Below, one piece after another: positions 1,362-32,230 of a stretch of 36,641 bases of DNA. The DNA is from a virus (lineage: Duplodnaviria > Heunggongvirae > Uroviricota > Caudoviricetes), in IMG/VR virus record IMGVR_UViG_2877285697_000003, positions 1-36,641 of that record; one strand, given 5' to 3'. Within the stretch, counting starts at the first letter, position 1; the number at the start of each line of letters is the position of its first letter. A model generated the notes under the pieces. That model did no database searches. It was not told the DNA's origin and worked only from the letters and a program-made list of their open reading frames with translations. Position numbers and translations under genes: made by a program.

Positions 1362-1427
1362 TAAACCTCCCAGACGTCCAGGAGCATTAACAGGTTAACC
1401 GGAACTTGCATTTTTGGCACCTGGTTG

Positions 1428-2123: not shown

Positions 2124-2195
2124 TGAAGTGGCACACTGAATTTGGCCACCTGAACAGAGGTGATATGCTCACCTCAGAACAACACAGGTGCTCCA

Positions 2196-3364
<1,169 letters not shown>

Positions 3365-3566
3365 CCACTTCACAGTCCTCAATCGCTGGTTCCGTGACGG
3401 AAGGGGGCGTCGTGTTCACGTTATACGCTGGGAGCCTGAAACACAGCGGGTTATTTATCTGCGTGATGGTTATCCATATGAATGTTTCAGCCCGTTGTGG
3501 TTGTTCAGGCGTGATTTTGTGGAGTGTGAAGCGCCGCCGGAATGACGGCACGGTATATACGAAAAA

Positions 3567-6044: not shown

Positions 6045-6334
6045 GTCGTTATGCCCCCACACCGGAAGTTATGGCTATTGGTCAAATTAATATTTCCGGC
6101 AATGTCACACCGACAACCTGGTGGAAACATATCCAGCTACCCAGTGGGCGTCCGGATGCGACAGCCATTGCGCTGCTTTCAGAGATTGTTTACTGGTATC
6201 GCCCGACAGAAGTCAGGGATGAGCATACAGGGGCTTTACTGGGATATCGCAAGCGTTTTCAGGGTGACAAGCTGCAAAGAAGCTATCAGGCGTTTGCTGA
6301 GCAGTTTGGCTTTGGGAAAAGGGAAACCGCAGAT
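6041..6334 (+). pseudogene. Hypothetical gene, 3'-truncated by IS600 (stop codon supplied by the IS terminus)
   Basis: ORF runs straight into the IS600 end at 6335 (..GKRETAD then TGA from TGAGGTGTACTGG). Confidence 0.45.
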
Positions 6335-7365: not shown

Positions 7366-8893
7366 AACGTGATCTGGCTCGCCAGTGGATTTTACAATGG
7401 CCGGAACATACGGCTAGTGCACTTATCCCTCTTGTCTTTACCAAACCCAGCGATAATAGCGAAGCCGCATTACTTGCCCTGCGTTTACTGTACGAACAGG
7501 GACATGGCGAATTGCTACAAACCGTGGCAAACCGCTGGCAGCGTACAGATGTATGGTCTGCCCTGGAGCAGTTGCTTAAACAGGGTCCAATGGACATTTA
7601 CCCGGCACGCATTCCAAAAGCCCCTGATTTCTGGCATCCGGCAATGTGGTCCAGGCCTTGACTTATCACTAATAATCAGCCTGTTACCGGTGACGCTCTG
7701 GAAATTATCGGCGAAATGCTGCGCTTTACCCAGGGGGGACGTTTTTATAGCGGGCTGGAACAACTGAAAACGTTCTGCCAGCCACAAACGCTGGCAGCTT
7801 TTGCCTGGGATCTCTTCACTGCGTGGCAACAAGCTGGTGCCCCCGCAAAAGACAACTGGGCATTTCTGGCGTTAAGTCTCTTTGGTGACGAAAGCACGGC
7901 ACGGGATCTGACGACACAGATCCTCGCCTGGCCACAAGAAGGCAAATCTGCCCGTGCTGTCAGCGGCCTGAACATCCTTACCCTGATGAATAATGATATG
8001 GCGCTGATACAGCTGCATCATATATCGCAACGGGCTAAATCCCGCCCCTTACGTGATAACGCGGCGGAATTTCTTCAGGTGGTCGCAGAAAATCGCGGGC
8101 TAAGCCAGGAAGAGCTAGCGGACAGATTAGTCCCAACCCTGGGCCTTGATGATCCGCAGGCGTTGAGTTTTGATTTTGGTCCCCGGCAGTTTACCGTTCG
8201 CTTCGATGAAAACCTCAACCCGGTTATCTTTGATCAGCAAAACGTTCGCCAGAAAAGCGTTCCCCGGTTGCGCGCCGATGACGATCAACTGAAAGCGCCC
8301 GAGGCACTGGCCCGACTAAAAGGGCTAAAAAAAGATGCTACTCAGGTGAGCAAAAACCTGCTCCCGCGTCTTGAAGCTGCCCTAGGTACCACCCGACGCT
8401 GGTCGCTGGCAGATTTTCATTCTCTGTTTGTTAATCATCCCTTTACCCGTCTGGTTACCCAGCGATTAATATGGGGGGGTTATCCGGCAAATGAACCGCG
8501 TTGTTTACTCAAAGCCTTTCGTGTGGCCGCAGAGGGGGAGTTCTGCAATGCGCAAGATGAGCCAATTGACCTGCCTGCGGACGCTCTGATTGGCATTGCC
8601 TACCCGTTAGAAATGACAGTAGAAATGCGCAGTGAATTTGCACAGCTTTTTGCCGATTACGAAATTATGCCGCCTTTTCGCCAGTTGTCGCGCCGCACGG
8701 TGCTGCTCACACCTGACGAGTCAACCAGTAACAGCCTGACTCGCTGGGAAGGTAAATCCGCTACCGTTGGGCAGCTTATGGGAATGCGATACAAAGGCTG
8801 GGAGTCAGGTTATGAGGACGCATTTGTCTATGACCTGGGTGAGTACCGGCTGGTCCTTAAGTTTTCACCCGGTTTTAACCACTACAATGTTGA
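7366..8893 (+). pseudogene. molR: molR/yehI-family (DUF4132-type) gene fragment: 5' part deleted at IS600, in-frame stop at 7659-7661, 3' end interrupted by IS1
   Basis: Two same-frame ORFs (7359-7661 and 7716-8915) separated by one stop codon; translation recalled as the large WGR/DUF4132 protein encoded next to metG in E. coli; the final codons MLPTY-stop come from the IS1 terminus. Confidence 0.6.
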
Positions 8894-9659
8894 GGTAATG
8901 CTGCCAACTTACTGATTTAGTGTATGATGGTGATTTTAAGGTGCTTGCGTGGCTTCCATTTCCATCAGATGTCCTTCCTGCTCCGCTACTGAAGGCGTGG
9001 TGCGTAACGGCAAAAGCACTGCCGGACATCAGCGCTATCTCTGCTCTCATTGCCAAAACATGGCAACTACAGTTCACTTACACCGCCTCTCAGCCCGGTA
9101 CGCACCAGAAAATCATTGATATGGCCATGAATGGCGTCGGATGTCGCGCCAGTGCACGCATTATGGGCGTTGGCCTCAACACGGTTTTACGTCACTTAAA
9201 AAACTCAGGCCGCAGTCGGTAACCTCGCGCATACAACCGGGCAGTGATGTGATTGTCTGCGCTGAAATGGACGAACAGTGGGGCTACGTCGGTGCTAAAT
9301 CACGTCAGCGCTGGCTGTTTTACGCGTATGACAGGATACGGAGGACGGTTGTGGCGCACGTCTTCGGTGAACGCACTCTGGCCACACTGGAGCGTCTTCT
9401 GAGCCTGCTGTCGGCCTTTGAGGTCGTGGTATGGATGACGGATGGCTGGCCGCTGTATGAATCACGCCTGAAGGGAAAGCTGCACGTTATCAGCAAGCGT
9501 TACACTCAGCGCATTGAGCGACATAATCTGAATCTGAGACAACATCTGGCAAGGCTGGGACGGAAGTCACTGTCGTTCTCAAAATCGGTGGAGCTGCATG
9601 ACAAGGTCATCGGGCATTATCTGAACATAAAACACTATCAGTAAGTTGGAGTCATTACC
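8894..9659 (+). mobile_element. IS1, full length but with a 2-bp deletion that frameshifts insA
   Basis: Ends GGTAATGCTGCCAACTTACTGAT.. and ..ATCAGTAAGTTGGAGTCATTACC; insA region TCTCATTGCC--AAAACATGG differs from canonical TCTCACTGCCGTAAAACATGG, so the InsA frame is broken; insB is intact. Confidence 0.9.
9141..9644 (+). CDS. insB: IS1 InsB
   Basis: 167-aa translation recognised as IS1 InsB (..[54 protein letters not shown]..). Confidence 0.9.
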
Positions 9660-9818
9660 TGAATAATCAACAGGTGCTTCTGGGTTACAGCTGGCTTGAC
9701 GATAAACTTGAGCTCTACCTCCTTAGCATCGGTCCACATGAAAATTTTTATACCGATCAGAAAAAACACCGAAAAGCTGATTTAAAACTCATCGGTTAGT
9801 CCTGACGTCATGCATACC

Positions 9819-15683: not shown

Positions 15684-16289
15684 ATGCAGGCAGGTCACCA
15701 GAGTGACGCGGATATTTATATTTATGACGAGATTGGTTTCTGGGGTGTTACGGCGAAGCAGTTTATCAGTGATCTGAATGCACTGGGCGATATCACCCAC
15801 ATTAATCTCCATATCAATTCACCGGGTGGCGATGTCTTTGAAGGCATCGCCATTTTTAATGCACTGAAAACACATGGTGCGTCCATTACCGTTTATGTCG
15901 ACGGTGTGGCGGCATCAATGGCGTCGGTCATTGCGATGGTGGGAAACCCGGTCATTATGCCGGAAAACACCTTCATGATGATTCATAAACCATTTGGCTT
16001 TACGGGCGGTGATGCGGAGGACATGCGCACCTATGCCGACCTGCTCGATAAAGTTGAGGCGGTTCTGTTACCCGCTTATGCACAGAAAACCGGGAAAACC
16101 ATCGATGAAGTTGCTGCCATGCTGGCGGATGAGACCTGGATGTCCGGTGCCGAATGTCTGGCACATGGATTTGCTGATCAGGTGACGCCAGCCGTTAAGG
16201 CAATGGCATGTATTCAGTCAAAACGTACAGAGGAATTTAAAAAGATGCCGGAATCCATTCGAAACATGATTACTCCGCCACGCAACTGA
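15684..16289 (+). CDS. ClpP/S14-family prohead protease; stop codon provided by the IS600 terminus
   Basis: Translation (..HINSPGGDVFEGIAIFNALK.. SMASVIAMVG.. MIHKP..) has ClpP-like Ser/His motifs; start set at ATG 15684 just after the portal stop (ORF track start 15579 overlaps portal); TGA at 16287-16289 is the first 3 nt of the IS600 IRL. Confidence 0.8.
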   Translation: MQAGHQSDADIYIYDEIGFWGVTAKQFISDLNALGDITHINLHINSPGGDVFEGIAIFNALKTHGASITVYVDGVAASMASVIAMVGNPVIMPENTFMMIHKPFGFTGGDAEDMRTYADLLDKVEAVLLPAYAQKTGKTIDEVAAMLADETWMSGAECLAHGFADQVTPAVKAMACIQSKRTEEFKKMPESIRNMITPPRN

Positions 16290-16350
16290 GGTAGCCTGAG
16301 TTTAACGGACACTCCTTCCTGAAATAGAATGGCATCAGAAGGAGCTAATA

Positions 16351-16653
16351 ATGAGCAGAAAAACCCAACGTTACTCTAAAGAGTTCAAAGCCGAAGCTGT
16401 CAGAACGGTTCTTGAAAATCAACTTTCGATCAGTGAAGGCGCTTCCCGATTATCCCTTCCTGAAGGCACTTTAGGACAATGGGTTACCGCCGCCAGAAAA
16501 GGGCTCGGTACTCCTGGCTCCCGCACGGTGGCTGAACTGGAATCTGAAATTCTGCAACTGCGTAAGGCGTTAAATGAAGCTCGCCTTGAGCGAGATATAT
16601 TAAAAAAAGCAACAGCGTATTTTGCACAGGAGTCGCTGAAAAATACGCGTTAA
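16351..16653 (+). CDS. IS600 OrfA
   Basis: 100-aa ORF MSRKTQRYSKEFKAEAVRTV.. with HTH and leucine-zipper-like C-terminus, as in IS3-family OrfA proteins. Confidence 0.9.
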   Translation: MSRKTQRYSKEFKAEAVRTVLENQLSISEGASRLSLPEGTLGQWVTAARKGLGTPGSRTVAELESEILQLRKALNEARLERDILKKATAYFAQESLKNTR

Positions 16654-16688
16654 TCGAACAATGGCGACAACAATTTCCCATTGAAGCG

Positions 16689-17507
16689 ATGTGTCAGGTA
16701 TTTGGTGTATCCAGGAGCGGTTATTACAACTGGGTACAGCATGAACCCTCAGACAGAAAACAAAGTGATGAGCGGCTAAAACTGGAGATTAAGGTGGCAC
16801 ATATCCGCACTCGCGAAACATATGGAACCCGGCGGCTCCAGACGGAGCTGGCAGAGAATGGCATCATCGTTGGTCGTGACCGACTGGCACGTCTTCGTAA
16901 GGAGCTAAGGCTACGCTGTAAGCAGAAACGCAAGTTCAGAGCGACTACGAACCCGAACCACAATCTGCCAGTTGCGCCAAATCTGCTGAACCAGACGTTC
17001 GCTCCTACAGCACCAAATCAGGTCTGGGTGGCGGACCTGACGTATGTTGCCACACAGGAGGGATGGTTGTACCTCGCTGGCATCAAAGATGTTTATACGT
17101 GCGAAATTGTCGGCTACGCCATGGGAGAGCGCATGACAAAAGAGCTGACAGGTAAAGCCCTGTTTATGGCGCTCAGGAGCCAGCGCCCACCTGCCGGGCT
17201 AATCCACCACTCTGATCGAGGTTCACAGTACTGCGCATACGATTACCGGGTCATACAGGAGCAGTCTGGTCTGAAAACATCAATGTCGCGTAAAGGTAAC
17301 TGTTACGGCAACGCTCCGATGGAAAGCTTCTGGGGAACGCTGAAAAATGAGAGCCTGAGCCACTATCGTTTTAATAACCGGGATGAAGCCATCTCAGTAA
17401 TACGGGAATACATTGAGATTTTCTACAATCGTCAGCGTCGTCACTCTCGTCTGGGGAATATCTCCCCGGCAGCCTTCAGGGAAAAATATCATCAGATGGC
17501 TGCTTAA
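16689..17507 (+). CDS. IS600 OrfB transposase
   Basis: 272-aa ORF; differs from the copy at 6378-7196 by two substitutions (F->S and D->G in ..VIQEQSGLKTSMSRKGNCYGNAPME..). Confidence 0.9.
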   Translation: MCQVFGVSRSGYYNWVQHEPSDRKQSDERLKLEIKVAHIRTRETYGTRRLQTELAENGIIVGRDRLARLRKELRLRCKQKRKFRATTNPNHNLPVAPNLLNQTFAPTAPNQVWVADLTYVATQEGWLYLAGIKDVYTCEIVGYAMGERMTKELTGKALFMALRSQRPPAGLIHHSDRGSQYCAYDYRVIQEQSGLKTSMSRKGNCYGNAPMESFWGTLKNESLSHYRFNNRDEAISVIREYIEIFYNRQRRHSRLGNISPAAFREKYHQMAA

Positions 17508-17550
17508 AAAAAGAACAAATGGTAGTGTCCGCTATTGCCAGTACACCTCA

Positions 17551-17765
17551 GAATTATCCTTCGCTTGCTCCACATACCCCTTCTTCACCTTCTCCGCAAT
17601 CAGCTTAAGCTCCGCTTTTGCCGCTGCCGCAGCATCTGAAAAACTTTTTATCTGGCTTTGCCCTTTGGTGCCAACTTTTCCCCAACTGATATGCAACTCG
17701 TTTCCCTGTTGCTCAACTGCCCAGAATTTATGTGATTTTTCGTCCTGATAGATAAAGTGTCTCAT
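17551..17765 (-). pseudogene. molR: molR-family gene, N-terminal WGR-domain fragment, truncated by IS600
   Basis: Translation MRHFIYQDEKSHKFWAVEQQGNELHISWGKVGTKGQSQIKSF.. has the WGR motif; the last residues (EVYWQ-stop) are read from the IS600 terminus; lies directly downstream of metG as molR does in E. coli. Confidence 0.6.
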
Positions 17766-17864
17766 TCTGCATCCCTGTAATTTTATCCAGTTGAATGCAG
17801 ATGCTACCAGTATTTATGCGGGTTAGAGAGAGACAAAATCGCAAGAAAACAACTTTAGGAATTT

Positions 17865-17896
17865 ATAAAGAAAAGGCGCTGTCGATGCAGCGCCTT
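17865..17896 (-). terminator. Rho-independent terminator downstream of metG
   Basis: On the minus strand AAGGCGCTG catcgac CAGCGCCTT followed by a T-rich run, about 10 bp after the metG stop. Confidence 0.6.
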
Positions 17897-17905
17897 GAAG
17901 GGGGA

Positions 17906-19939
17906 TTATTTCACCTGATGGCCTGGTTTAGCACCAGCATCCGGGCTTAACAGGAAGATATCTTTCCCGCCAGGACCAGCAGCCATTACCATGCCTTCGG
18001 AGATACCAAAGCGCATTTTACGCGGTGCCAGGTTGGCCACCATAATGGTGTGACGCCCGATCAGTGCCTGCGGATCCGGGTAGGCAGAACGAATACCGGA
18101 GAAGACATTGCGTTTTTCACCGCCGAGATCCAGTGTCAGGCGCAGCAGTTTGTCAGAACCTTCAACAAACTCTGCGTTTTCGATCAGCGCCACGCGCAGG
18201 TCAACTTTTGCGAAGTCGTCAAAGGTGATGGTTTCCTGAATCGGATCATCTGCCAGTGGGCCAGTAACTGGCGCGGCAGCTGCTTTCACTTCTTCTTTAG
18301 ACGCTTCCACCAGTGCTTCAACCTGCTTCATATCGATGCGGTTATACAGCGCTTTGAACGGATTCACTTTGTGGCCCAGCAGCGGTTGCTGGATACCATC
18401 CCAGGTCAGTTCTGTATTGAGGAATGCTTCTGCGCGCTCGGTCAGTTTCGGCAGTACCGGCTTCAGGTAAGTCATCAGCACGCGGAACAGGTTTATGCCC
18501 ATTGAGCAAATTGCCTGCAGGTCGGCATCGCGGCCTTCCTGTTTTGCCACCACCCACGGAGCCTGCTCGTCGACATAGCGGTTAGCCAGATCAGCCAGCG
18601 CCATGATTTCGCGCACTGCTTTACCAAATTCGCGGCTTTCCCACGCTTCACCAATCACTTCAGCGGCATCAGTGAAGGTTTTGTACAACTGCGGGTCAGC
18701 CAGTTCGCTTGCCAGCACGCCGTCAAAACGCTTGTTGATAAAGCCCGCATTACGAGAGGCCAGGTTAACCACTTTGTTCACGATATCGGCATTCACACGC
18801 TGAACGAAATCCTCCAGGTTGAGATCGATATCATCAATGCGCGAAGAGAGTTTCGTAGTGTAGTAGTAACGCAGGCTGTCAGCGTCAAAATGATTCAGCC
18901 AGGTGCTGGCTTTAATAAAGGTGCCGCGAGACTTGGACATCTTTGCGCCGTTCACCGTCACATAGCCATGAACAAACAGGTTGGTCGGCTTGCGGAAGTT
19001 GCTGCCTTCCAGCATGGCAGGCCAGAACAGGCTGTGGAAGTAAACAATATCTTTACCGATGAAGTGGTACAGCTCGGCGGTGGAGTCTTTCTTCCAGTAT
19101 TCATCGAAGCTTACGCTGTCGCCGCGCTTGTCGCACAGATTCTTGAAAGAACCCATGTAGCCAATCGGTGCGTCCAGCCAGACGTAGAAATATTTGCCCG
19201 GCGCGTTCGGAATTTCAAAACCAAAGTATGGCGCGTCGCGGGAGATATCCCACTGTTGCAGGCCGGATTCAAACCACTCCTGCATTTTATTTGCCACCTG
19301 CTCCTGCAACGCACCGCTGCGGGTCCATGCCTGCAACATTTCGCTGAAAGAGGGCAGATCAAAGAAGAAGTGTTCAGAATCACGCATTACCGGCGTAGCG
19401 CCAGAAACCACCGATTTCGGCTCGATCAATTCAGTCGGGCTGTAGGTCGCGCCGCAGACTTCGCAGTTATCGCCGTATTGATCCGGGGATTTACATTTCG
19501 GGCAGGTGCCTTTCACAAAACGGTCCGGCAGGAACATGCCTTTTTCCGGATCGTACAGCTGAGAGATGGTGCGGTTTTTAATAAAACCGTTCTCTTTCAG
19601 GCGAGAGTAGATAAGTTCTGACAACTGGCGGTTCTCTTCGCTGTGCGTCGAGTGATAGTTGTCATAGCTGATGTTAAAGCCTGCGAAATCAGTCTGATGC
19701 TCCTGACTCATTTCGCCAATCATCTGCTCCGGGGTGATACCAAGCTGCTGAGCTTTCAGCATGATCGGTGTACCGTGGGCATCGTCGGCGCAGATGAAGT
19801 TGACCTCGTGGCCGCGCATTCGCTGGTAACGGACCCAGACATCAGCCTGGATGTGCTCCAGCATATGGCCGAGGTGGATTGAGCCGTTAGCGTACGGCAG
19901 TGCGCACGTCACCAGAATTTTCTTCGCGACTTGAGTCAT
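17906..19939 (-). CDS. metG: Methionine--tRNA ligase
   Basis: Translation matches MetG over its full length (HIGH-type ..[14 protein letters not shown].. and KMSKS motifs, C-terminal tRNA-binding domain); start placed at [10 protein letters not shown]. Confidence 0.97.
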
Positions 19940-20070
19940 AGTAGGCATTACTTCTTAATAGTGAAAAGGGGTTAGATAGTACCAAATGGGAAAATGTTAA
20001 GTAAGTACTTCTCTATATTCTTCAGGTAAACTATCAGCTGATGGTTTATCTATACAAAAAAGGAGTCGGG

Positions 20071-21180
20071 ATGAACGAACAATCCCAGGCCAAATCACCA
20101 GAAGCCTTGCGCGCAATGGTCGCCGGGACACTGGCCAATTTTCAGCACCCAACCCTGAAGCATAACCTCACCACGCTGAAAGCGTTGCACCATGTCGCCT
20201 GGATGGACGACACGTTGCATGTGGAACTGGTTATGCCATTCGTCTGGCATAGCGCGTTTGAAGAGTTAAAAGAGCAATGTAGCGCCGAACTGCTGCGTAT
20301 CACCGGGGCGAAAGCTATCGACTGGAAACTGTCGCACAATATCGCCACCTTAAAACGCGTGAAGAATCAGCCGGGTATTAATGGTGTGAAGAACATCATT
20401 GCGGTCAGTTCCGGTAAAGGCGGCGTGGGTAAATCCTCCACGGCGGTAAACCTGGCGCTGGCACTGGCGGCGGAAGGGGCGAAAGTCGGCATTCTGGACG
20501 CCGATATCTACGGCCCATCAATTCCCACCATGCTGGGCGCAGAAAATCAGCGTCCAACTTCGCCGGACGGTACCCATATGGCACCGATTATGTCTCATGG
20601 CCTGGCAACCAATTCAATTGGTTATCTGGTCACTGACGACAATGCGATGGTGTGGCGTGGACCGATGGCGAGCAAGGCGTTAATGCAGATGTTGCAGGAA
20701 ACCTTGTGGCCGGATCTCGACTATCTGGTGCTTGATATGCCGCCAGGCACCGGTGACATTCAATTGACGCTGGCGCAAAACATTCCAGTAACTGGTGCAG
20801 TCGTGGTCACCACCCCGCAGGACATCGCGTTGATCGATGCGAAAAAAGGCATTGTGATGTTCGAGAAAGTCGAGGTTCCGGTGCTTGGTATTGTCGAGAA
20901 CATGAGTGTGCATATTTGCAGTAACTGTGGTCACCATGAACCGATTTTCGGTACCGGTGGTGCAGAGAAACTGGCTGAAAAATACCACACACAGCTGCTG
21001 GGGCAGATGCCGTTACACATCTCCTTACGTGAGGATCTCGATAAAGGCACGCCAACGGTTATCAGCCGTCCGGAGAGCGAATTTACCGCTATCTACCGCC
21101 AGCTGGCTGACCGCGTTGCAGCTCAGCTCTACTGGCAGGGTGAAGTCATTCCAGGCGAGATTTCCTTCCGCGCGGTCTAA
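20071..21180 (+). CDS. apbC: Iron-sulfur cluster carrier ATPase ApbC (Mrp)
   Basis: Translation from MNEQSQAK.. with Walker A (SGKGGVGKSS) and CxxC (CSNCGH); divergent from metG as in E. coli. Confidence 0.95.
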   Translation: MNEQSQAKSPEALRAMVAGTLANFQHPTLKHNLTTLKALHHVAWMDDTLHVELVMPFVWHSAFEELKEQCSAELLRITGAKAIDWKLSHNIATLKRVKNQPGINGVKNIIAVSSGKGGVGKSSTAVNLALALAAEGAKVGILDADIYGPSIPTMLGAENQRPTSPDGTHMAPIMSHGLATNSIGYLVTDDNAMVWRGPMASKALMQMLQETLWPDLDYLVLDMPPGTGDIQLTLAQNIPVTGAVVVTTPQDIALIDAKKGIVMFEKVEVPVLGIVENMSVHICSNCGHHEPIFGTGGAEKLAEKYHTQLLGQMPLHISLREDLDKGTPTVISRPESEFTAIYRQLADRVAAQLYWQGEVIPGEISFRAV

Positions 21181-21210
21181 CGCCTATTAACCATTCTGGT
21201 TATTCTTCAT

Positions 21211-21250
21211 ACACCGCAGAGATGTTACATTGATGCGGTGTATTAGTTTT
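21211..21250 (+). terminator. Terminator-like hairpin downstream of apbC
   Basis: ACACCGCA ..15 nt.. TGCGGTGT followed by ATTAGTTTTT, 30 bp after the apbC stop. Confidence 0.5.
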
Positions 21251-21440
21251 TGCCGCATTAATGAACACTTATTTAATACTGCGAATATTCTGCGGACCTT
21301 CGTCCGAAACTCTACAAAGTCGATTGATCATACAGGCAATGCTTCATTATCATCCTTCGTGGCTGTGTAGTGGATGTACAGCTATAGTTTGTTATGCACT
21401 CATTCTATCCAGGCATAACCTTTACTACAGGGATAACGTT

Positions 21441-21748
21441 CAATGGGTAATGACTCCAACTTACTGATAGTGTTTTATGTTCAGATAATGCCCGATGACC
21501 TTGTCATGCAGCTCCACCGATTTTGAGAACGACAGTGACTTCCGTCCCAGCCTTGCCAGATGTTGTCTCAGATTCAGATTATGTCGCTCAATGCGCTGAG
21601 TGTAACGCTTGCTGATAACGTGCAGCTTTCCCTTCAGGCGTGATTCATACAGCGGCCAGCCATCCGTCATCCATACCACGACCTCAAAGGCCGACAGCAG
21701 GCTCAGAAGACGCTCCAGTGTGGCCAGAGTGCGTTCACCGAAGACGTG
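21441..21748 (-). mobile_element. IS1 fragment (right-end ~308 bp with the 3' part of insB), cut by IS911
   Basis: Begins with IS1 terminus GGTAATGACTCCAACTTACTGATAGTG; ORF 21461-21763 encodes the C-terminal 95 residues of InsB; homology ends exactly where IS911 starts. Confidence 0.85.
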
Positions 21749-21756
21749 TGAAGTGG

Positions 21757-22925
<1,169 letters not shown>

Positions 22926-23282
22926 TGGAGCACCTGTGTTGTTCTGAGGTGAGCATATCACCTCTGTTCAGGTGGCCAAATTCAGTGTGCCACTTCACCT
23001 CCGCAAATAACGGATGGCGTAGTTTTACACTGAGAAATGAAAGGGATTTGAAAAGAAAAAAACGCAAAAGCGGGCGAAACGATATATACAGTAAGGAAAG
23101 CACTCTATCCAACAAACCACCCACAGTTAATCGGAATAAAAGCAGAGTGCTTATGAATGATCGCACGCCCGAAGGTTAGTATTTCTGCACAGCAATTTTG
23201 CAAAAAAAGGCGATCATTCATAACTTAAACGTCTTTCAGTCACTCCGGGATTTCCCATCATCGCAGACTGAAAGACTCTGAC

Positions 23283-23357
<75 letters not shown>

Positions 23358-23360
23358 ATA

Positions 23361-23436
<76 letters not shown>

Positions 23437-23438
23437 GC

Positions 23439-23515
23439 TGGCCCACCACCGAGGACTCGAACCTCGCACCGTCAACTTAGAAGGTTGATGCTCTATCCGG
23501 ATGAGCTAGTGGTGG
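23439..23515 (-). tRNA. tRNA-Arg (anticodon UCU), atypical C1:G72 acceptor end
   Basis: 77 nt: acceptor CCACCAC/GTGGTGG, D-arm GCTC..GAGC, anticodon stem TCAAC/GTTGA with loop CTTCTAA, T-arm CGAGG TTCGAGT CCTCG, discriminator G plus CCA. Confidence 0.65.
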
Positions 23516-23516
23516 T

Positions 23517-23593
23517 TGGTGGCCCTTGCTGGACTTGAACCAGCGACCTGGCGATTATGAGTCGCTCGCTCTGACCAACTGAGCTAAAGGGCC
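23517..23593 (-). tRNA. tRNA with CAU anticodon (Ile2/Met type, ileZ-like of lambdoid phages)
   Basis: 77 nt: acceptor GGCCCTT/AAGGGCC, D-arm GCTCAGTTGGTCAGAGC, anticodon loop CTCATAA, T-loop GGTTCAAGTCC, 3' ACCA. Confidence 0.75.
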
Positions 23594-23679
23594 GGAGGCA
23601 GAATAATAACCATATGTCATCACATCTGCAAACTCATCTGACCACCAGCGTGTTTAACGTCCTGTACCGTTTTTCAGGC

Positions 23680-23706
23680 ATAAAAAACCCGCCCGGAGGC
23701 GGGTTT
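23680..23706 (-). terminator. Rho-independent terminator downstream of Q (tR'-like)
   Basis: On the minus strand AAACCCGCC tccg GGCGGGTTT followed by TTTATG, about 90 bp downstream of the Q stop and upstream of the tRNA cluster. Confidence 0.5.
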
Positions 23707-23792
23707 AAGCTGTGTGGCGAAGCAACCACTCTTAACAGAATATCCCGTTTTTTACGTACGTAAAATATTTTCTAGAAAGTCGCCCCTTACCA

Positions 23793-24173
23793 TCAGGGAT
23801 GTTCAATATATTTGTCCATTTCTAACCGGACACCCAACATCATCAACATTCCTTCCACCACCCCCTCGGCTTTTTGTAGCTTCTTTCCTATATAACCATC
23901 TGAGCATCCATGCTTCCGCGCCAGCGTCATGAATGTCATCCCAAACACGTAGTAGTCAACCAGCAAGTCATGTAGATCGTTGTTGTTCCGGTTAAGGCGG
24001 GCCATACACCCACATATAACCATCGCGTCATCGTCACAGCATTGCGGGCGGGATTTTACTTTTGAAGGGATTAATCCCTTAAAACCGGCAGCAATGGACG
24101 ACCAGGTCACATCCTCATGATTATTAGCCACCCACGCGCCCCAGCGCTCAAGAACCTGCTGAATATCACGCAT
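23793..24173 (-). CDS. Q: Late-gene antitermination protein Q-like
   Basis: Position after ninH and before terminator plus tRNAs; cysteine-rich segment (..[20 protein letters not shown]..) consistent with Q-family zinc-binding antiterminators; start set at the internal ATG 4 bp after the ninH stop. Confidence 0.65.
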
Positions 24174-24369
24174 CACTGTCTTTACCCCTGTCCCATCCAC
24201 GATGAACAATCAGAACACCATCAACAATGGCGTGCCCTTTGCCCTCTTTATCTTCAGCATATTTTCTTACCGTGGCGCGATTACAGTTCAGCATTCGTGA
24301 AACTTCGGTCATATTACCTCGTGTCTGGATAAGCAGTTCCGGTATCGTTTGAATTTTGACGCTCATCAA
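24166..24369 (-). CDS. ninH: NinH-like protein
   Basis: 67-aa translation (..[56 protein letters not shown]..) resembles lambda NinH as recalled. Confidence 0.7.
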
Positions 24370-24460
24370 ATACTCTCCGGTTCGGTGATTTTTATCCCGG
24401 GCTTTCCACCAGGGACATAATGATCGCGCACAAGCCAGGGCAAAACAAACTCATGGCGCA

Positions 24461-24718
24461 TCAGCGCAGCGCCTCCTGCACCAGTTTTTCAAACTTTCCG
24501 ACTCTGGTTTCCAGCTCTGCCACACAGTCCACCAGCTCATCTACTGCTTTCTGTGCGCGATGCTTCGCCTGCATCAGTTCCCGAAGCGCGGGTACCATAT
24601 CTTTACGGATAGCGTCTTTTGTTATGCCCGTTTTTTCGAGTTGTTCAGCATGACGCAGCATTTCCTGCGCGTGTTTACGCAATTGTTCAGGGGTAAAAGT
24701 CATTGTCTGGTTGTTCAA
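24461..24718 (-). CDS. Hypothetical 85-aa coiled-coil protein
   Basis: ORF whose start overlaps the stop of the upstream helicase gene by 4 nt; helical heptad-like composition. Confidence 0.45.
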   Translation of the reverse strand: MNNQTMTFTPEQLRKHAQEMLRHAEQLEKTGITKDAIRKDMVPALRELMQAKHRAQKAVDELVDCVAELETRVGKFEKLVQEALR

Positions 24719-26106
24719 AAGAAACGCTCCATCTTACTGCTGTCAGTTCGTTTATTACTGTATCTGCGCGGATTGCCGGGCTTCATGGGAGTGGAAAGCA
24801 CCCGTGCACTTTCCTGGTCCACAGGCAGAAAATGTCCGTTATAAAAACGCCGGTAAATCGTTCCCAGAGAACCGTTACGTTGTTTCGTGATATTGATTTC
24901 TGCGATGCCCCTGGCCTGCGTATCCGGGTTGTACACTTCATCCCTGTAAAGCATCAGAATGATGTCTGCATCCGCCTCTATTTCTCCGGAATTTTTCAGG
25001 TCTGAGTTCATGGGACGTTTATTGGGTCTGGACTCCACACCGCGGGAGAGCTGGCTCAGCGCAATCAACGGAAAACCACCGGATTTTGCCAGGCCTTTAA
25101 GCCCCTTTGAGATTTCACCCACGGCAAGGTCATGACGCCCCGTGGTTCGGGTTTTTATCAGCCCGAGATAATCAACCACCACCAGCGCCGTTTCCGGATA
25201 TTTAATCAGGTGGTGTTTCGTTGTTGCGCATATCTCATCAATGGCCAGGTTCGCCTGGTCCACCATCCAGATATTGCGCCCGGTCATCCGCCCCACCCCT
25301 TGTGAGAAACGCGCCCAGTCTTCATCTTCAAAGTGAGCCACAGATTTCAGGCGTGATACTGGCATCCCTCCAGCCGCAGACACCATACGTTCACCAATCT
25401 GGATGTTCGCCATCTCCATGGTGAACAGAAGCACACCATGCCCCTGCTCAGTCACCTTGTCGATGATGTCCAGCGCAAGTTCGGTTTTCCCCATCGAAGG
25501 ACGGGCGGCAATGAATACCAGGTCTCCGGGCTCCATACCGCCTGTTTTTGCGTCCAGTTCATCAATACCGGTCATCAACGTCCTGGATTTCTCCAGCCCC
25601 TGATTCCGGCATTCAACACGCTCAACCACTTCCGGAAGCACATCATCAATATGTACCGGCTGAATGACGCCCTTTCCTGTCGACAGTGTGACCATCATGT
25701 TCTGCGCATCCTTCAGGGCATCTTCAGCTGCTTCACAGGTATGCGCATCACGTAATTTCTGCAGCGCCTCATTCAGTGTTTTTTCTGCATCGCGCAGTGC
25801 GGCATTGCGCCGCAACGCTGCAACATAGTGCTCCAGTGAAGACTTCACCCAGGTTTTACGCCCGGTATCAGTAATCACCGGGGCAAGTTCCGGCATCTCA
25901 TTACACAACAGCACGGGGTCAATCACTCCTGAAACACGGGCCTGTCTGCAGATGCCTGTATAGATATCCTGATACGCTCGTACAGAAAAAACGTCCGCTG
26001 GCAGTGTGGCCAGAATATCCATCACTTCAGGATCTGCTCCGCGCAGAAAGAACGCGCCGATGACAGCGCCTTCAAGGTCATCGTTACGCCATACTGGAGT
26101 TGTCAT
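24715..26106 (-). CDS. DnaB-family replicative DNA helicase (phage-encoded)
   Basis: 463-aa translation with Walker A (..ARPSMGKTELALD..) and RecA-like C-terminal domain; ATGA overlap with the upstream DnaC-like gene. Confidence 0.85.
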   Translation of the reverse strand: MTTPVWRNDDLEGAVIGAFFLRGADPEVMDILATLPADVFSVRAYQDIYTGICRQARVSGVIDPVLLCNEMPELAPVITDTGRKTWVKSSLEHYVAALRRNAALRDAEKTLNEALQKLRDAHTCEAAEDALKDAQNMMVTLSTGKGVIQPVHIDDVLPEVVERVECRNQGLEKSRTLMTGIDELDAKTGGMEPGDLVFIAARPSMGKTELALDIIDKVTEQGHGVLLFTMEMANIQIGERMVSAAGGMPVSRLKSVAHFEDEDWARFSQGVGRMTGRNIWMVDQANLAIDEICATTKHHLIKYPETALVVVDYLGLIKTRTTGRHDLAVGEISKGLKGLAKSGGFPLIALSQLSRGVESRPNKRPMNSDLKNSGEIEADADIILMLYRDEVYNPDTQARGIAEINITKQRNGSLGTIYRRFYNGHFLPVDQESARVLSTPMKPGNPRRYSNKRTDSSKMERFF

Positions 26107-26564
26107 GCAGCCACACCTCTGATACGAGAACGGTAACTGGGCCAGTTAAACGACAACCAGTTGCGTCCCCCGTCTGTGATCCTGTCGGCAATTCGGGGAC
26201 TGATGAACGCCCACAACTCTTCCGGTGAGAGGTTACTGATCAGAATGGTGGGCAAGATACTTTCGTACCTGGCGTTGATAATTTCCTGCAAAATAGCCAT
26301 TTCAGCCGCGCTGCCAAACTGAACGCCAACTTCGTCGATGATCAGCAAATCCATTGACGCATAACGCTCAATAACTTCATCCGCTGTTTTTTCGCTGTCA
26401 TTCCGCCAGCAATTTTTCACAGCACGGGTAAGGCGCATCACGTCGGTGATCTCCACACTGGCCAGATAGTTACGGATGATGTGTTTTGCCATAGCCACAG
26501 CCAGATGATTTTTTCCGGTACCACAACTGCCGGTCATAACAAGACTGGTACCGTTCTCCAGCAT
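26103..26564 (-). pseudogene. DnaC/IstB-like AAA+ helicase loader, 5'-truncated
   Basis: ORF starts directly at the Walker A region (..LVMTGSCGTGKNHLAVAMA.. DLLIIDEVG..) with no N-terminal domain; truncation abuts the IS10-like element. Confidence 0.6.
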
Positions 26565-26675
26565 ATCTGGCCAGTTCTCCGCATAGCGGCGACAGGCCGC
26601 AAGATTTCTGGCTGCGTCAGGATTAACCTCCAGATAATTATCAAACTCGCAGTCCCGAAAACGCAGGGCAATTCC

Positions 26676-27969
26676 CTGAGGAATCCCCAGAAAACAAGAC
26701 AGGCATAGTGAGATGTGATCTAATTGATTGTGCTAACAATTTCAAGGAGATCACCACTATGCCTGCACGTTCATTATGCCAAAATTTCCTTAACAACATA
26801 CTGGCCCCTTTGCATCTTTACCGTCAAAAATCACTGATTGACGCAACTAATGCTGTAATAAATGGCGCTTCCCTCACACTTACCAGTATCGGGCGTCATT
26901 TAACCGGTACGGCATCAGTTAAAAACAAAATAAAACGGGTGGATCGACTGTTGGGGAATCGACATTTGCAAAATGAGGTTTCCACCATTTTTCAGCGAAT
27001 TACCCAAAAGATTACGCGGGGAATGTCTCGTGTTGTGATACTCATTGACTGGAGTGCTTATCATGCCTCTCGTTTTCAGCTTTTGCGGGCAAGCCTGGCA
27101 TGTGACGGGCGTTCTTTACCGTTGATGAGTTGTGTCGTTCCATCATCACAGACAGCGAATGCAGATGTACATGAGCGTTTTCTGGAATCGCTTGCTGAGT
27201 GCTTTTCCCCCGGGACTGATGTCATTGTTATTACAGATGCCGGTTTTCAGGGGCGATGGTTCCAACAGCTCCGCTCCCGTGGCTGGACCTATATTTGCCG
27301 GGTACTGGGCAATCATTATTACAATGTTGGTAATGGCTGGGAAAAGGTGTCGGACTCAGGCACAAAAGCATCAACGACAGCAATTTATTTAGGTGAAGGC
27401 CTGCTGGGTCGAGATAAAAATGCACAACATGAAGGGCATTTTTATCTTTATAAAAGTAAGCCTAAAGGTCGTAGATTTAAACGCTCGAAGGAAAGAGCAA
27501 CCAGACCATCGGTGACGGCTAAAGCTCGTACTGCCGGGAAATCACCATGGTTTATTTTCACAAACAGTACTGAGTTCTCGCCAAAACAGGTAATGAAATT
27601 ATACAGACGTAGAATGCAAATTGAGCAAAATTTCAGGGATGAAAAAAATCCTCGCTGGGGATTTGGACTACGGTTTGGTGCCAGTCATTCATCCGGGCGG
27701 GTCACGGTATTGAGTCTGAGCGCAACATTAGCCAGTATCATTATGTGGTTAAGCGGTTTCAGCCTGGAAAACAAAGGGATACATCATAAATATCAGGCAA
27801 ATACAGTGAAGCACAGGCGAGTCATCTCGTTATTAAAACTGGCGGAGAATGTGATTCGACATTCTCCACTCATACTAAACACACTGTCACTTGACGCAGG
27901 GCTGAACGTTCTACAGCAACGGTATACCAATATGATAATGGTTTACTAAATTTTCTGGGGATCCCTCAG
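26676..27969 (+). mobile_element. IS4-family insertion sequence, IS10-like, about 1294 bp
   Basis: Terminal inverted repeats CTGAGGAATCCCCAGAAAA (26676-26694) and TTTTCTGGGGATCCCTCAG (27951-27969), similar to IS10 ends; flanking 9-mers are not a direct repeat. Confidence 0.8.
26759..27949 (+). CDS. IS4-family (IS10-like) DDE transposase
   Basis: Translation shares recalled IS10 transposase segments (..[18 protein letters not shown]..) and the IS4-family YREK signature ([15 protein letters not shown]); ORF track start 26708 is an alternative. Confidence 0.85.
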
Positions 27970-30588
27970 GGGAAACGTCTTGGTGCGGCAGATGTGGACA
28001 AATGGGCGCTGTATGTCATCGGCCAGTACTGCGACCAGTCAGTGCCGGACGGATTTGGCGGCACGGAGCCGCGCATCACCTGTAACGCTTACCTGACCAC
28101 ACAGCGTAAGGCGTGGGATGTGCTCAGTGATTTCTGCTCGGCGATGCGCTGTATGCCGGTATGGAACGGGCAGACGCTGACGTTCGTGCAGGAGCGACCG
28201 TCGGATAAGGTGTGGACCTATAACCGCAGTAATGTGGTGATGCCGGATGATGGCGCGCCGTTCCGTTACAGCTTCAGCGCCCTGAAGGACCGCCATAATG
28301 CCGTTGAGGTGAACTGGATTGATCCGGACAACGGTCATGAGACGGCGACAGAGCTTGTGGAGGACACGCAGGCCATTCTCCGTTACGGTCGTAACGTCAC
28401 GAAGATGGATGCCTTTGGCTGTACCAGCCGGGGACAGGCGCACCGCGCCGGGCTGTGGCTGATTAAAACAGAACTGCTGGAAACGCAGACCGTGGACTTC
28501 AGCGTGGGTGCTGAAGGGCTTCGCCATGTACCGGGCGATGTCATTGAAATCTGCGATGATGACTATGCCGGTATCAGCACCGGCGGGCGCGTGCTGGCGG
28601 TGAACAGCCAGACCCGGACGCTGACGCTCGACCGTGAAATCACGCTGCCATCCTCCGGTACCACGCTGATAAGCCTGGTTGACGGAAGTGGCAATCCGGT
28701 CAGCGTGGAGGTCCAGTCCGTCACCGACGGCGTGAAGGTGAAAGTGAGCCGTATTCCTGACGGCGTTGCCGGATACAGCGTGTGGGGGCTGAAGCTGCCG
28801 ACGCTGCACCAGCGCCTGTTCCGCTGTGTGAGTATCCGTGAGAACGACGACGGCACGTATGCCATCACCGCCGTGCAGCATGTGCCGGAAAAAGAGGCCA
28901 TTGTGGATAACGGGGCACACTTTGACAGTGACCGGCGCGGCACGGTGAATGGTGTCTCGCCGCCAGCAGTGCAGCACCTGACCGCCGAAGTCATCGCAGG
29001 CAGCGGGGAATATCAGGTGCTGGCGCGCTGGGACACGCCGAAGGTGGTGAAGGGGGGGAGCTTCCTGCTTCGCCTGACCGTGGCAGCGGATGACGGCAGT
29101 GAGCGGCTGGTCAGCACAGCCCGGACGACGGAAACCACATATCGTTTCACGCAGCTTGCGTTGGGGCGTTATACGCTGACAGTCCGGGCGGTAAATGCCC
29201 GGGGGCAGCAGGGCGATCCGGTGTCGGTATCGTTCCGGATTGCGGCACCGGCAGCGCCTGTCACTATTGAACTGATACCGGGGTATTTTCAGATAACGGC
29301 GGTCCCGAAACTGGCTGTATATGACCCGACGGTGCAGTTTGAGTTCTGGTTTTCGGAAAAGCGGATTGCGGATATCAGGCAGGTTGAAACCAGCGCCCGC
29401 TATCTTGGCACGGCGCTGTACTGGATAGCCACCAGTATCAATATCAGGCCGGGCCATGATTATTATTTTTACGTTCGCAGTGTGAACACCGTTGGCAAAT
29501 CGGCATTTGTGGAGGCCGTCGGTCGGGCGAGCGATGATGCGGAAGGTTATCTGAGTTTTTATAAAGGGTTGATCAATAAAACGCATCTCGGCAAGGAGTT
29601 GTGGACGCAGATTGATAACGGTCAGCTTGCGCCGGACCTGACTGAAATCAGGACGTCCATTACGAATGTCAGCAATGAAATCACGCAAACCGTCAATAAA
29701 AAACTGGAAAATCAGAGTGCTGCAATCCAGCAGATACAGAAAGTTCAGGTTGATACAAATAATAACCTGAACAGCATGTGGGCTGTGAAGCTGCAACAGA
29801 TGAAGGACGGACGCCTTTATATTGCGGGTATCGGTGCCGGTATTGAGAATACGCCAGCAGGAATGCAGAGTCAGGTGCTGCTGGCGGCAGACAGGATTGC
29901 GATGATTAATCCTGCGAATGGCAACACAAAGCCGATGTTTGTTGGTCAGGGCGATCAGATATTCATGAACGACGTGTTCCTGAAACGCCTGACGGCTCCG
30001 ACCATTACCAGCGGCGGTAATCCTCCGGCATTTTCCCTGACACCTGGCGGACGGCTGACGGCGAAAAATGCCGATATCAGCGGTAACGTGAACGCGAACT
30101 CCGGGACGCTCAACAACGTCACGATTAATAAGAACTGTCGGGTTCTGGGAAAATTGTCCGCGAACCAGATTGAAGGCGATCTCGTTAAAACAGTGGGCAA
30201 ACCTTTCCCACGGGACTCCCGGGCACCGGAGAGGTGGCCATCAGGGACCATTACCGTCAGGGTTTATGACGATCAGCCGTTTGATCGGCAAATTGTTATT
30301 CCCGCGGTGGCGTTTCGCGGTGCTAAACATGAGCGGAAGAATAACAATATTTATTCGTCATGCCGCCTGATAGTGAAGAAAAACGGTGCTGAAATTTATA
30401 ACCGAACGACCCTGGATAATACGCTGATATATACGGGTGTTATTGATATGCCTGCCGGTCACGGTCACATGACGCTGGAGTTTTCTGTATCGGCATGGCT
30501 GGTAAATGGCTGGTATCCCACAGCAAGTATCAGCGATTTGCTGGTTGTTGTGATGAAGAAAGCCACTGCAGGCATCACGATTAGCTGA
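27970..30588 (+). pseudogene. J: Host specificity / tail-tip protein J (lambda gpJ), 5'-truncated at the IS10-like element; C-terminal ~870 aa present
   Basis: Translation is near-identical to the C-terminal three quarters of phage lambda J as recalled (..[65 protein letters not shown]..); reading frame is open back to the IS end. Confidence 0.9.
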
Positions 30589-30607
30589 ATTTTATAACCC
30601 AGATACG

Positions 30608-30633
30608 GGCACCAGAAATGGTGCCTTTTTTAT
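30608..30633 (+). terminator. Rho-independent terminator after J
   Basis: GGCACC agaaat GGTGCC followed by TTTTTTATT, 20 bp after the J stop. Confidence 0.55.
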
Positions 30634-30655
30634 TGCAGAAAAGCGAGAGGTAATT

Positions 30656-31255
30656 ATGCGTAAAGTTTGTGCAGCCATTTTGTCCGCAGCCATCTGTCTG
30701 GCTGTATCCGGTGCGCCTGCATGGGCGTCTGAACATCAGTCCACGCTGAGCGCCGGGTATCTTCAGCCCCATACTGATATGCCAGGCAGCGATGACCTGA
30801 AGGGCATTAACGTGAAATACCGTTATGAGTTTACGGACACGCTGGGGCTGGTGACGTCATTCAGCTATGCCAACGCTGAAGATGAGCAAAAAACGCATTA
30901 CAGCGATACCCGCTGGCATGAGGATTCCGTGCGTAACCGCTGGTTCAGCGTGATGGCGGGGCCGTCTGTGCGCGTGAATGAATGGTTCAGCGCGTATGCG
31001 ATGGCGGGCGTGGCTTACAGCCGTGTGTCGACCTTCTCCGGGGATTATCTCCGCGTAACTGACAACAAGGGGAAAACGCACGATGTGCTGACCGGGAGTG
31101 ATGACGGTCGCCACAGCAACACGTCTCTGGCGTGGGGAGCTGGCGTGCAGTTTAACCCGACCGAATCCGTGGCCGTTGACGTCGCTTATGAAGGCTCCGG
31201 CAGCGGTGACTGGCGTACCAACAGTTTCATCGTGGGTGTCGGTTATAAATTCTGA
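30656..31255 (+). CDS. lom: Lom-like outer membrane protein (Ail/Lom/OmpX family)
   Basis: 199-aa ORF with signal peptide (MRKVCAAILSAAICLAVSGAPAWA), beta-barrel-like alternating pattern and C-terminal ..GVGYKF; located after J as in lambda. Confidence 0.85.
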   Translation: MRKVCAAILSAAICLAVSGAPAWASEHQSTLSAGYLQPHTDMPGSDDLKGINVKYRYEFTDTLGLVTSFSYANAEDEQKTHYSDTRWHEDSVRNRWFSVMAGPSVRVNEWFSAYAMAGVAYSRVSTFSGDYLRVTDNKGKTHDVLTGSDDGRHSNTSLAWGAGVQFNPTESVAVDVAYEGSGSGDWRTNSFIVGVGYKF

Positions 31256-31280
31256 TTAGCCAGGTAACACAGTGTTATGA

Positions 31281-31306
31281 CAGCCCGCCGTTTCAGGCGG
31301 GCTTTT
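31281..31306 (+). terminator. Rho-independent terminator after lom
   Basis: AGCCCGCC gtttca GGCGGGCT followed by TTTTTGTG. Confidence 0.55.
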
Positions 31307-31318
31307 TGTGGGGTGAAT

Positions 31319-32230
31319 ATGGCAGTAAAGATTTCAGGTGTACTGAAAGATGGGGCGGGTAAACCTGTCGTAAATTGTGCGATTGAACTGCGGGCCAGAA
31401 GAACCAGTCCGACCGTTGTGGCACACGTTGTTGCCACTTGCGTGACGGACAATAACGGTGCTTATGTGATTGAGGCTGAGCCGGGGTATTACGAGGTTGC
31501 GCTTCACTGTAACGGCTGGCAGCCAACCCGTGTCGGGGATATTGATGTGGCACCGACTGATGCACCGGGGACACTGAACGCGTTTCTGAATGCACCAAAG
31601 GATGGTGATTTACGTCCGGAGGTGATGAAGCGCTTTGAGGAAATGGTGGCGCAGGCGCAGCAGAGTGCCGGGGCTGCAGCCGGAAACGCACAGCAGACGG
31701 CGCAGGATGTGGCGGCAGCCGCAGGTTATGCCCGCGCAGCAGAACAGGCCAAAAATGACATTGATGCTGCGCTGACCGGCACTCTGAAAACGGCTAACCA
31801 TCTGTCTGAAATCGCAGCAGCAGGCGAAAAGGCACAACAGAAGTCCCGGGATAATCTGGGGCTGAAAAGTGCAGCCACGATGGAAGCACAGAGCGACATT
31901 TACGACCGGACAAAAGGCCGTCTGGCGATACCCGGCGCATTCGGCTTTGGGCGTGCTTTTCTGCCTGAAGATGTTATCCGTTTTGACACTAAGAGTGATT
32001 TCCTGGCCTGGGTAAGGAATGCGCTGCCAGGTGAGTATTCCGTTGCTGGCCGCCTGGGCATCATACCCGACACACGGTTTGAAGGGGTGCTCAGCATCCG
32101 GTGGACTGATGCACGCCCTGAGACAACAGAACCGCGGTACAGAGCCAAATCCCTTACTTTTTACGGCATTAACGGCCCCATTTATCACACCCGCTACTGC
32201 TACTGGCCCATATCCAGACTGACTGGGTGA
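31319..32230 (+). CDS. stf: Side tail fiber protein, Stf N-terminal-domain homologue (303 aa)
   Basis: N-terminus MAVKISGVLKDGAGKPV.. matches the lambda Stf N-terminus as recalled; start at 31319 follows the lom terminator (ORF track start 31277 lies inside that hairpin). Confidence 0.7.
   Translation: MAVKISGVLKDGAGKPVVNCAIELRARRTSPTVVAHVVATCVTDNNGAYVIEAEPGYYEVALHCNGWQPTRVGDIDVAPTDAPGTLNAFLNAPKDGDLRPEVMKRFEEMVAQAQQSAGAAAGNAQQTAQDVAAAAGYARAAEQAKNDIDAALTGTLKTANHLSEIAAAGEKAQQKSRDNLGLKSAATMEAQSDIYDRTKGRLAIPGAFGFGRAFLPEDVIRFDTKSDFLAWVRNALPGEYSVAGRLGIIPDTRFEGVLSIRWTDARPETTEPRYRAKSLTFYGINGPIYHTRYCYWPISRLTG

Follow-up and report, generated by a model that had tools for sequence, protein, structure and literature searches.

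An ISEc60 copy at a probable recombination junction between truncated dnaC-like and J genes in an ipaH prophage of Shigella dysenteriae

Background

In Shigella, inversions and deletions arise mainly through recombination between copies of insertion sequences (ISs), with inverted copies giving rise to inversions and direct copies to deletions (Seferbekova et al. 2021, PMC8072062). In that work, 103 of 114 reconstructed inversions fell on Shigella branches, and ipaH genes were found among prophage genes and ISs (PMC8072062). Those inversions are large and chromosomal, whereas the event described here is local, lying within one prophage and covering a few kb to ~25 kb. It concerns a stretch of 36,641 nucleotides from a tailed phage of the class Caudoviricetes (IMG/VR record IMGVR_UViG_2877285697_000003, positions 1 to 36,641; "the window" below means this whole stretch), in which a complete copy of ISEc60, a member of the IS4 family, stands between two truncated genes—a dnaC-like helicase-loader gene and the tail-tip gene J.

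The likeness of ISEc60 to IS10/Tn10 extends to a single DDE_Tnp_1 transposase, membership of the IS4 family, a symmetric target preference and the reuse of hot spots; the two differ in length and in target duplication (1,294 bp and 10 bp for ISEc60, 1,329 bp and 9 bp for IS10). The termini of ISEc60 start CTGA-GAATCCCC, which we take to resemble those of IS10. A preliminary description of the window, made from its sequence alone, called the element IS10-like, and this holds at the level of family and subgroup; the element itself is ISEc60, with ~35% amino acid identity to IS10. An IS10 isoform was rejected on protein identity (35.8% to IS10A over 93% of the protein), on element length and on the length of the repeats, and identity to the transposase of ISVsa5 was similarly 34.6-35.5%.

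The window is 100% identical to part of CP026827.1, a chromosome of 4,558,619 bp, with window position x corresponding to record position x+846,376. Its source is Shigella dysenteriae ATCC 12021, the adjacent accession CP026826.1 being a plasmid of that strain; the assembly is listed as S. dysenteriae and grouped with S. boydii (PMC10501659). The window runs from mlrA and the integrase gene on the left to DinI-yehU-yehT-yehS-yehR on the right, so that both ends of the prophage locus are in place, and in many Shigella and Escherichia coli genomes this same mlrA/yehU site holds a lambdoid prophage carrying ipaH, or its remains.

Results and discussion

The flanks of the window element come from two insertion sites

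The ten bases to the left of the window ISEc60 (GGGCAATTCC) and the ten to its right (GGGAAACGTC) are identical at 6 of 10 positions, and the element thus lacks a target duplication. We read seven independent simple insertions of ISEc60—five copies in E. coli (L027-L031), one at the dnaC site and one at the J site—and all seven are bounded by perfect 10-bp direct repeats, which makes the mismatch at the window copy meaningful rather than noise. The partial match between the two flanks reflects a shared GGGnnnnCCC-like target preference, as ISEc60 targets have this loose shape in common. A simple insertion with a degenerate duplication was rejected on the strength of the same seven cases. The preliminary description had also reported that the flanks differ, listing nine bases on each side in the expectation of a 9-bp duplication; its left nonamer was exact and its right one was shifted by one base (the actual nine are GGGAAACGT), there is no duplication either way, and the duplication made by ISEc60 turned out to be of 10 bp.

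Each flank was observed elsewhere as part of a simple insertion with its own 10-bp duplication, in agreement with the earlier view that the window copy is not itself a simple insertion. In E. coli FDAARGOS_943, ISEc60 (here itself interrupted by IS600) occupies the same dnaC site in the same orientation, with GGGCAATTCC on both sides, and this genome and the window share the same junction between the left inverted repeat (IRL) and dnaC3'. E. coli GCA_901482675.2 carries ISEc60 at the dnaC site the other way round, with the reverse complement of GGGCAATTCC at both ends. As these two E. coli strains have insertions of opposite orientation there, the site can be regarded as an insertion hot spot (dnaC-site repeats at 6250-6262 and 8815-8830 in L001, and at 8585-8600 and 9885-9900 in L005, the GCA_901482675.2 locus).

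The J target was found both empty and filled. Its uninterrupted form (...CATGGGGAAACGTCTTGG...) is present in the intact J of FDAARGOS_944, and a simple insertion with the structure J5'-GGGAAACGTC, ISEc60, GGGAAACGTC-J3' is present in an IMG/VR contig (L013). A look-up of the window's 864-aa J3' open reading frame (ORF) found this insertion also in CP026827.1 itself, at ~1.14 Mb (record 1.136-1.151 Mb), where the order is IS600, tape-measure-M-L-K-I-J5', ISEc60, J3'-lom-fibre-DUF4376-ipaH. The IMG/VR contig is 100% identical to this second locus over 12.4 kb and is therefore not an independent genome.

The frame upstream of the transposase ATG (26676-26758) is open across the whole left end of ISEc60, and in-frame insertions therefore yield host::transposase fusion ORFs. 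Those seen comprise J5'::Tnp of 714 aa (L013 3812-5956), dnaC5'::Tnp of 529 aa (L005 8280-9869) and, in the database, fusions to aldA, ydbC and others.

The element is a complete ISEc60

On sequence identity, the window element is the catalogued ISEc60 of the IS4 family, an already known IS. Over its full length it is 99.7% identical at the DNA level to copies annotated "IS4-like element ISEc60 family transposase", differing from the common sequence at 4 positions in 1,294 bp; the threshold that we applied for membership of the same IS was DNA identity above about 90-95%. A pattern search for the ends, with 2 matches against 0 expected by chance, placed 19-bp terminal inverted repeats that match at 18 of 19 positions, the left one being CTGAGGAATCCCCAGAAAA (Table 1). 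The interval 26103-27993 first given for the element thus contained a real IS, together with the dnaC fragment and 24 nt of J. The predicted transposase matches Pfam DDE_Tnp_1 (PF01609; 1.1e-20, 74.7 bits against a cut-off of 23) and NCBIfam NF033591 for the IS4 family (354 bits against 152), and has the same length, 396 aa, as WP_001111632.1 in other ISEc60 copies; the exact protein, as a separately called 396-aa gene, occurs only in CP026827.1. Copies of ISEc60 are present in 167 of 5,426 complete E. coli genomes and occupy up to ~39 places in some enteroinvasive strains. The window copy has the same imperfect inverted ends and DDE transposase as the annotated copies, and differs in lacking the target duplication of the seven simple insertions.

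Table 1 Coordinates of the junction and of associated features in the window
Feature	Position	Strand	Description
Complete ISEc60 (IS4 family)	26676..27969	+	1,294 bp; IRL 26676-26694, right inverted repeat (IRR) 27951-27969
ISEc60 transposase gene	26759..27949	+	396 aa, intact ORF
Left flank GGGCAATTCC	26666..26675		One copy of the 10-bp target duplication of the dnaC insertion site
Right flank GGGAAACGTC	27970..27979		One copy of the 10-bp target duplication of the J insertion site
dnaC-like helicase-loader 3' fragment	26103..26675	-	C-terminal 190 aa, DnaC/IstB-type ATPase
Tail-tip gene J 3' fragment	27970..30588	+	872 codons; in frame from the first base after the IS
Inverted prophage block	22998..26675	-	Four transfer RNA (tRNA) genes, Q, ninH, dnaB-like helicase, dnaC3'
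Duplicated 7,607-bp block	26675..34281	+	ISEc60, J3', lom, tail fibre, DUF4376, conserved 3' ipaH
IS600	16287..17550		Adjoins truncated S49 head-protease gene; 99.3% identical to annotated IS600 in FDAARGOS_943

The junction joins fragments of two genes that are co-directional in relatives

Both genes at the junction had been called 5'-truncated, the dnaC-like one on the minus strand to the left and J to the right with its frame open up to the IS end, and both calls are borne out. To judge from its profile matches, the gene on the left is a relative of DnaC of which only the C-terminal 190 of 292 residues are left, the intact 292-aa homologue in enteroinvasive E. coli (EIEC) CFSAN029787 showing that the 5' 102 codons are absent. 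The fragment scores 59.4 bits, above the cut-off, with the IstB_IS21 profile, and 129 bits with NF005931 (DnaC; positions 61-243 of 246), which is below that model's cut-off of 357; it overlaps the dnaB-like helicase gene by 4 nt. The J fragment lacks the 5' 290 codons of a 1,159-aa intact J (the 3,480-nt gpJ of CFSAN029787) and contains five Pfam domains, all above their cut-offs: Phage-tail_3, Ig_J, Ig_J_second, Phage_Tail_Tip and Ig_GpJ_C. The N-terminal FNIII-A_GpJ part, lacking in the window, is found in the 714-aa fusion of the second locus, whose 871-nt J5', taken with the 3' fragment, is an exact fit to the 3,480-nt gene.

The native order can be read directly from CFSAN029787, whose prophage (NZ_CP011416.1 362-405 kb) is an intact version of that in the window and lacks ISEc60. 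There, O-like, dnaC-like, dnaB-like, ninH, Q, four tRNA genes, lysis, terminase, head, tail, J, lom and fibre genes follow one another in a single direction, with ipaH on the opposite strand after the tail fibre gene; dnaC and J are accordingly co-directional, and the two breakpoints lie 24.6 kb apart. The same holds for the direction of dnaC and J in a second relative at the same chromosomal site (L043), and no complete E. coli genome among the 5,426 has the window junction. These comparisons, which include the alignment of both flanks to an intact relative that had been proposed as a check, are in line with the earlier statement that dnaC and J are neither adjacent nor divergent in lambdoid genomes.

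Window positions 22995-26675 are 100% identical to the CFSAN029787 prophage (tRNAs-Q-ninH-dnaB-dnaC3', with the match continuing at 100% up to base 26675 on the dnaC side), and positions 27969-36641 are 99% identical (J3'-lom-fibre-ipaH-methyltransferase-DinI), in the opposite relative orientation. The inverted block corresponds to positions 30120-33800 of the CFSAN029787 locus (L010) at 100%, with J3' and the KilA-N/terminase region matching in the opposite sense, and it runs against the direction of J3' and of the other late genes in the window. The head genes differ from those of CFSAN029787: 11267-16289 (terminase, portal, S49) has no megablast match, which makes the head module a mosaic piece distinct from theirs. 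The KilA-N/terminase/portal/S49' block and the Rha...O5' block each end at IS600 copies, and the O3'-dnaC5' and S49 3'...J5' pieces are absent from the window. Since dnaC and J are natively co-directional, the divergent order dnaC3'-IS-J3' cannot arise without an inversion, and some DNA is missing as well. The junction hence lies at one end of a prophage block that has been inverted, DNA at its flanks having been lost, as the breakpoint reading in the preliminary description had it.

A perfect 7.6-kb duplicate lies at the second locus

The duplicated block, which includes the window ISEc60, is identical at 7,607 of 7,607 positions to the IMG/VR contig L013 (4682-12288) and so to CP026827.1 at ~1,140,874-1,148,480 (BLAST). 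The two copies lie in direct orientation, ~268 kb apart in the same chromosome, in two prophage remnants. Judged by sequence, the lack of any difference would imply recent gene conversion or copying between ipaH prophages.

Within this block, the window and second-locus copies of ISEc60 are identical at 1,294 of 1,294 positions, and they alone have in common four substitutions (positions 260, 932, 1045 and 1232) in a comparison that covered the EIEC copies, the dnaC-site copies of other strains and the strain's own plasmid copy. The plasmid copy shares the G at 1045 and lacks the changes at 260, 932 and 1232.

Origin of the junction

We consider it likely that the junction is a homologous (RecA-type) recombinant between two ISEc60 copies, one in dnaC and one in J, within a single lambdoid ipaH prophage. 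The absence of a duplication at the window copy, set against its presence at all seven simple insertions, points to this copy being a recombinant, and IS600, IS911 and IS1 copies stand at the other breakpoints of the window as long perfect inverted repeats. One ISEc60 would have inserted in the dnaC-like gene, duplicating GGGCAATTCC, and another in J, duplicating GGGAAACGTC; in the native order the two would face each other as inverted repeats, and one crossover would invert dnaC3'...J5' to give <-dnaB<-dnaC3', IS, J3'->. A recombinant of this kind would have dnaC3', retained from the dnaC copy, on its IRL side and J3', retained from the J copy, on its IRR side.

The end state, O5', IS600, <-head 5' genes...<-Q<-dnaB<-dnaC3', ISEc60, J3'->, could be reached in two orders. 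An inversion between the ISEc60 copies may have been followed by a deletion between IS600 copies that removed the piece with the reciprocal junction; or an inversion between IS600 copies may have come first and a deletion between ISEc60 copies second. Because the two orders are equally short and arrive at the same state, they define no unique history, and the share of ISEc60 itself, inversion or deletion, is indistinguishable between them. The J copy in the window prophage would have come from gene conversion with the second-prophage copy or from an insertion parallel to it. A yehI fragment and molR'-metG-mrp then entered the prophage through further IS600, IS1 and IS911 events.

Several points weigh against this origin. 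Neither a simple insertion at the dnaC site nor the reciprocal junction (J5'-IS-dnaC5') was found in the source genome, of whose 4.56-Mb chromosome ~57 kb around the window and 23 kb at the second locus were read; the dnaC parental copy is consequently modelled on other strains. The suggestion in the preliminary description to search the genome for the reciprocal junction with matching 9-bp duplications was fruitful in part: a partner of the right flank does exist in the same genome, though in the form of the simple insertion in the second prophage. The dnaC copies of other strains carry the consensus bases at the private positions of the window element, which would place the crossover within the first 259 bp, or else call for an independent dnaC insertion of the local variant. 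The perfect 7.6-kb duplicate, moreover, needs an extra step of gene conversion or parallel insertion that was not observed. Protein searches for the reciprocal junction were negative but weak, having missed the 714-aa fusion although it is in the genome; the homologous-protein search is unreliable as to absence, for it missed this existing protein and also the 292-aa full-length DnaC-like cluster. A dnaC5' read-through ORF (124 or 123 aa) was likewise not in the protein collection, a weak negative given that such an ORF would be expected for FDAARGOS_943 if that genome were included. A pattern search of species-representative genomes matched neither the window right junction nor the dnaC-type right junction, so that the source genome itself is absent from that set, and none of the 10 inspected genomes carrying the same ipaH had ISEc60 in J of the mlrA/yehU prophage.

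A different origin, by templated repair or gene conversion from the second locus, is one that we regard as unlikely. Here ISEc60 would beforehand have been present in this prophage in dnaC alone, and a break would have been repaired from J5'-ISEc60-J3'...ipaH as donor, the left homology being ISEc60 and the right one J3'-ipaH. The repair would have brought the IS-J3' adjacency into the window prophage and removed the intervening DNA. This amounts to non-reciprocal recombination through ISEc60 and needs no J insertion in the window prophage. Several observations suit it: the 7,607-bp identity begins at the IS and ends where the ipaH paralogues stop being homologous, and the window IS has the second locus's private bases over at least positions 260-1232. 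Compared with the CFSAN029787 prophage, moreover, the region 27970-34281 shows ~1% difference and the left flank 100% identity, a density of differences that is only suggestive of a donor. Against it, the dnaC block must already have been inverted relative to J3' (for example by the IS600 pair) for the homologies to be co-oriented, and the sites that separate two reference prophages gave a mosaic pattern that names no donor.

The window flanks could also be generated by a transposition-coupled rearrangement, in which the J copy of ISEc60 attacked the dnaC hot spot on the same molecule by replicative or one-ended transposition, inverting the intervening DNA and leaving a second identical IS, without there ever having been a simple dnaC insertion in the strain. 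This would predict the observed flanks exactly (the original flank on the IRR side, the new target on the IRL side), would explain why the window IS is base for base the J-copy variant, and would make use of a preferred target that has been hit in both orientations in different strains. Its products, however, look the same as those of recombination between a pair of copies, and the dnaC site does carry simple insertions in other strains. In addition, cut-and-paste transposition with hairpin intermediates is the rule for IS4-family elements of the IS10/IS50 type, replicative products being rare; we consider this route quite improbable here. That ISEc60 may occasionally perform intramolecular replicative or one-ended transposition into GGGnnnnCCC hot spots is, as a property of the element, highly doubtful; if true, it would give an inversion and an identical second copy in one step and would account for the missing simple insertion in dnaC.

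An assembly artefact, with dnaC3' wrongly joined to J3' across the repeated IS or the 7.6-kb block, is scarcely probable: the genome does hold two perfect 7.6-kb copies and further ISEc60 copies on a plasmid, and the IMG/VR contig probably stems from the same assembly and hence gives no independent check, but the 4.56-Mb chromosome is finished, its mlrA-int and DinI-yehU flanks are in native order, and the remaining window breakpoints all lie at ISs, as expected of real Shigella rearrangements.

Other rearrangements and genes in the window

The two IS600 copies mark further breakpoints of the same scrambled prophage: a partial copy at 6335-7368 and the copy listed in Table 1 form an inverted repeat of 1,032 nt that is 100% complementary. 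IS911 (1,251 bp) occurs twice as a perfect inverted repeat, once inside a partial IS600 and once inside a partial IS1, and the window holds one complete IS1 (coordinates of the nested and paired ISs: 1425-3374, 6335-7368, 8894-9660, 16287-17550 and 21446-22997). Chromosomal genes lie inside the prophage interval, namely an inverted yehI fragment (7368-8893) and molR'-metG-mrp in native orientation (17550-21445). Both pieces are bounded by IS600 and IS1, and 5.6 kb of molR-yehI lying between the two are missing from the window.

The tRNA cluster of the inverted block (23283-23593, minus strand) lies between Q and the lost lysis genes and comprises Gly-UCC, Thr-UGU, Arg-UCU and a tRNA with a CAU anticodon, called Met by ARAGORN and Ile by PGAP in relatives. 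An intact ipaH gene for a 547-aa effector of the type III secretion system, an E3 ligase (33334-34977, minus strand), stands amid the wrecked prophage; S. sonnei and other Shigella, whose prophage at this locus has shrunk to a stump, encode the identical IpaH protein there.

Conclusions

The ISEc60 junction is an ordinary, already known kind of biology in an IS-ridden Shigella prophage, and its significance beyond annotation is slight. For annotation, ISEc60 should be labelled as lying at a recombination junction, and the dnaC and J pieces as fragments of pseudogenes in a dead prophage. A clean series of targets at which ISEc60 made 10-bp duplications is a further yield. The locus also provides a compact and fully traceable case in which several IS families dismantle an ipaH prophage while the ipaH effector gene stays intact.

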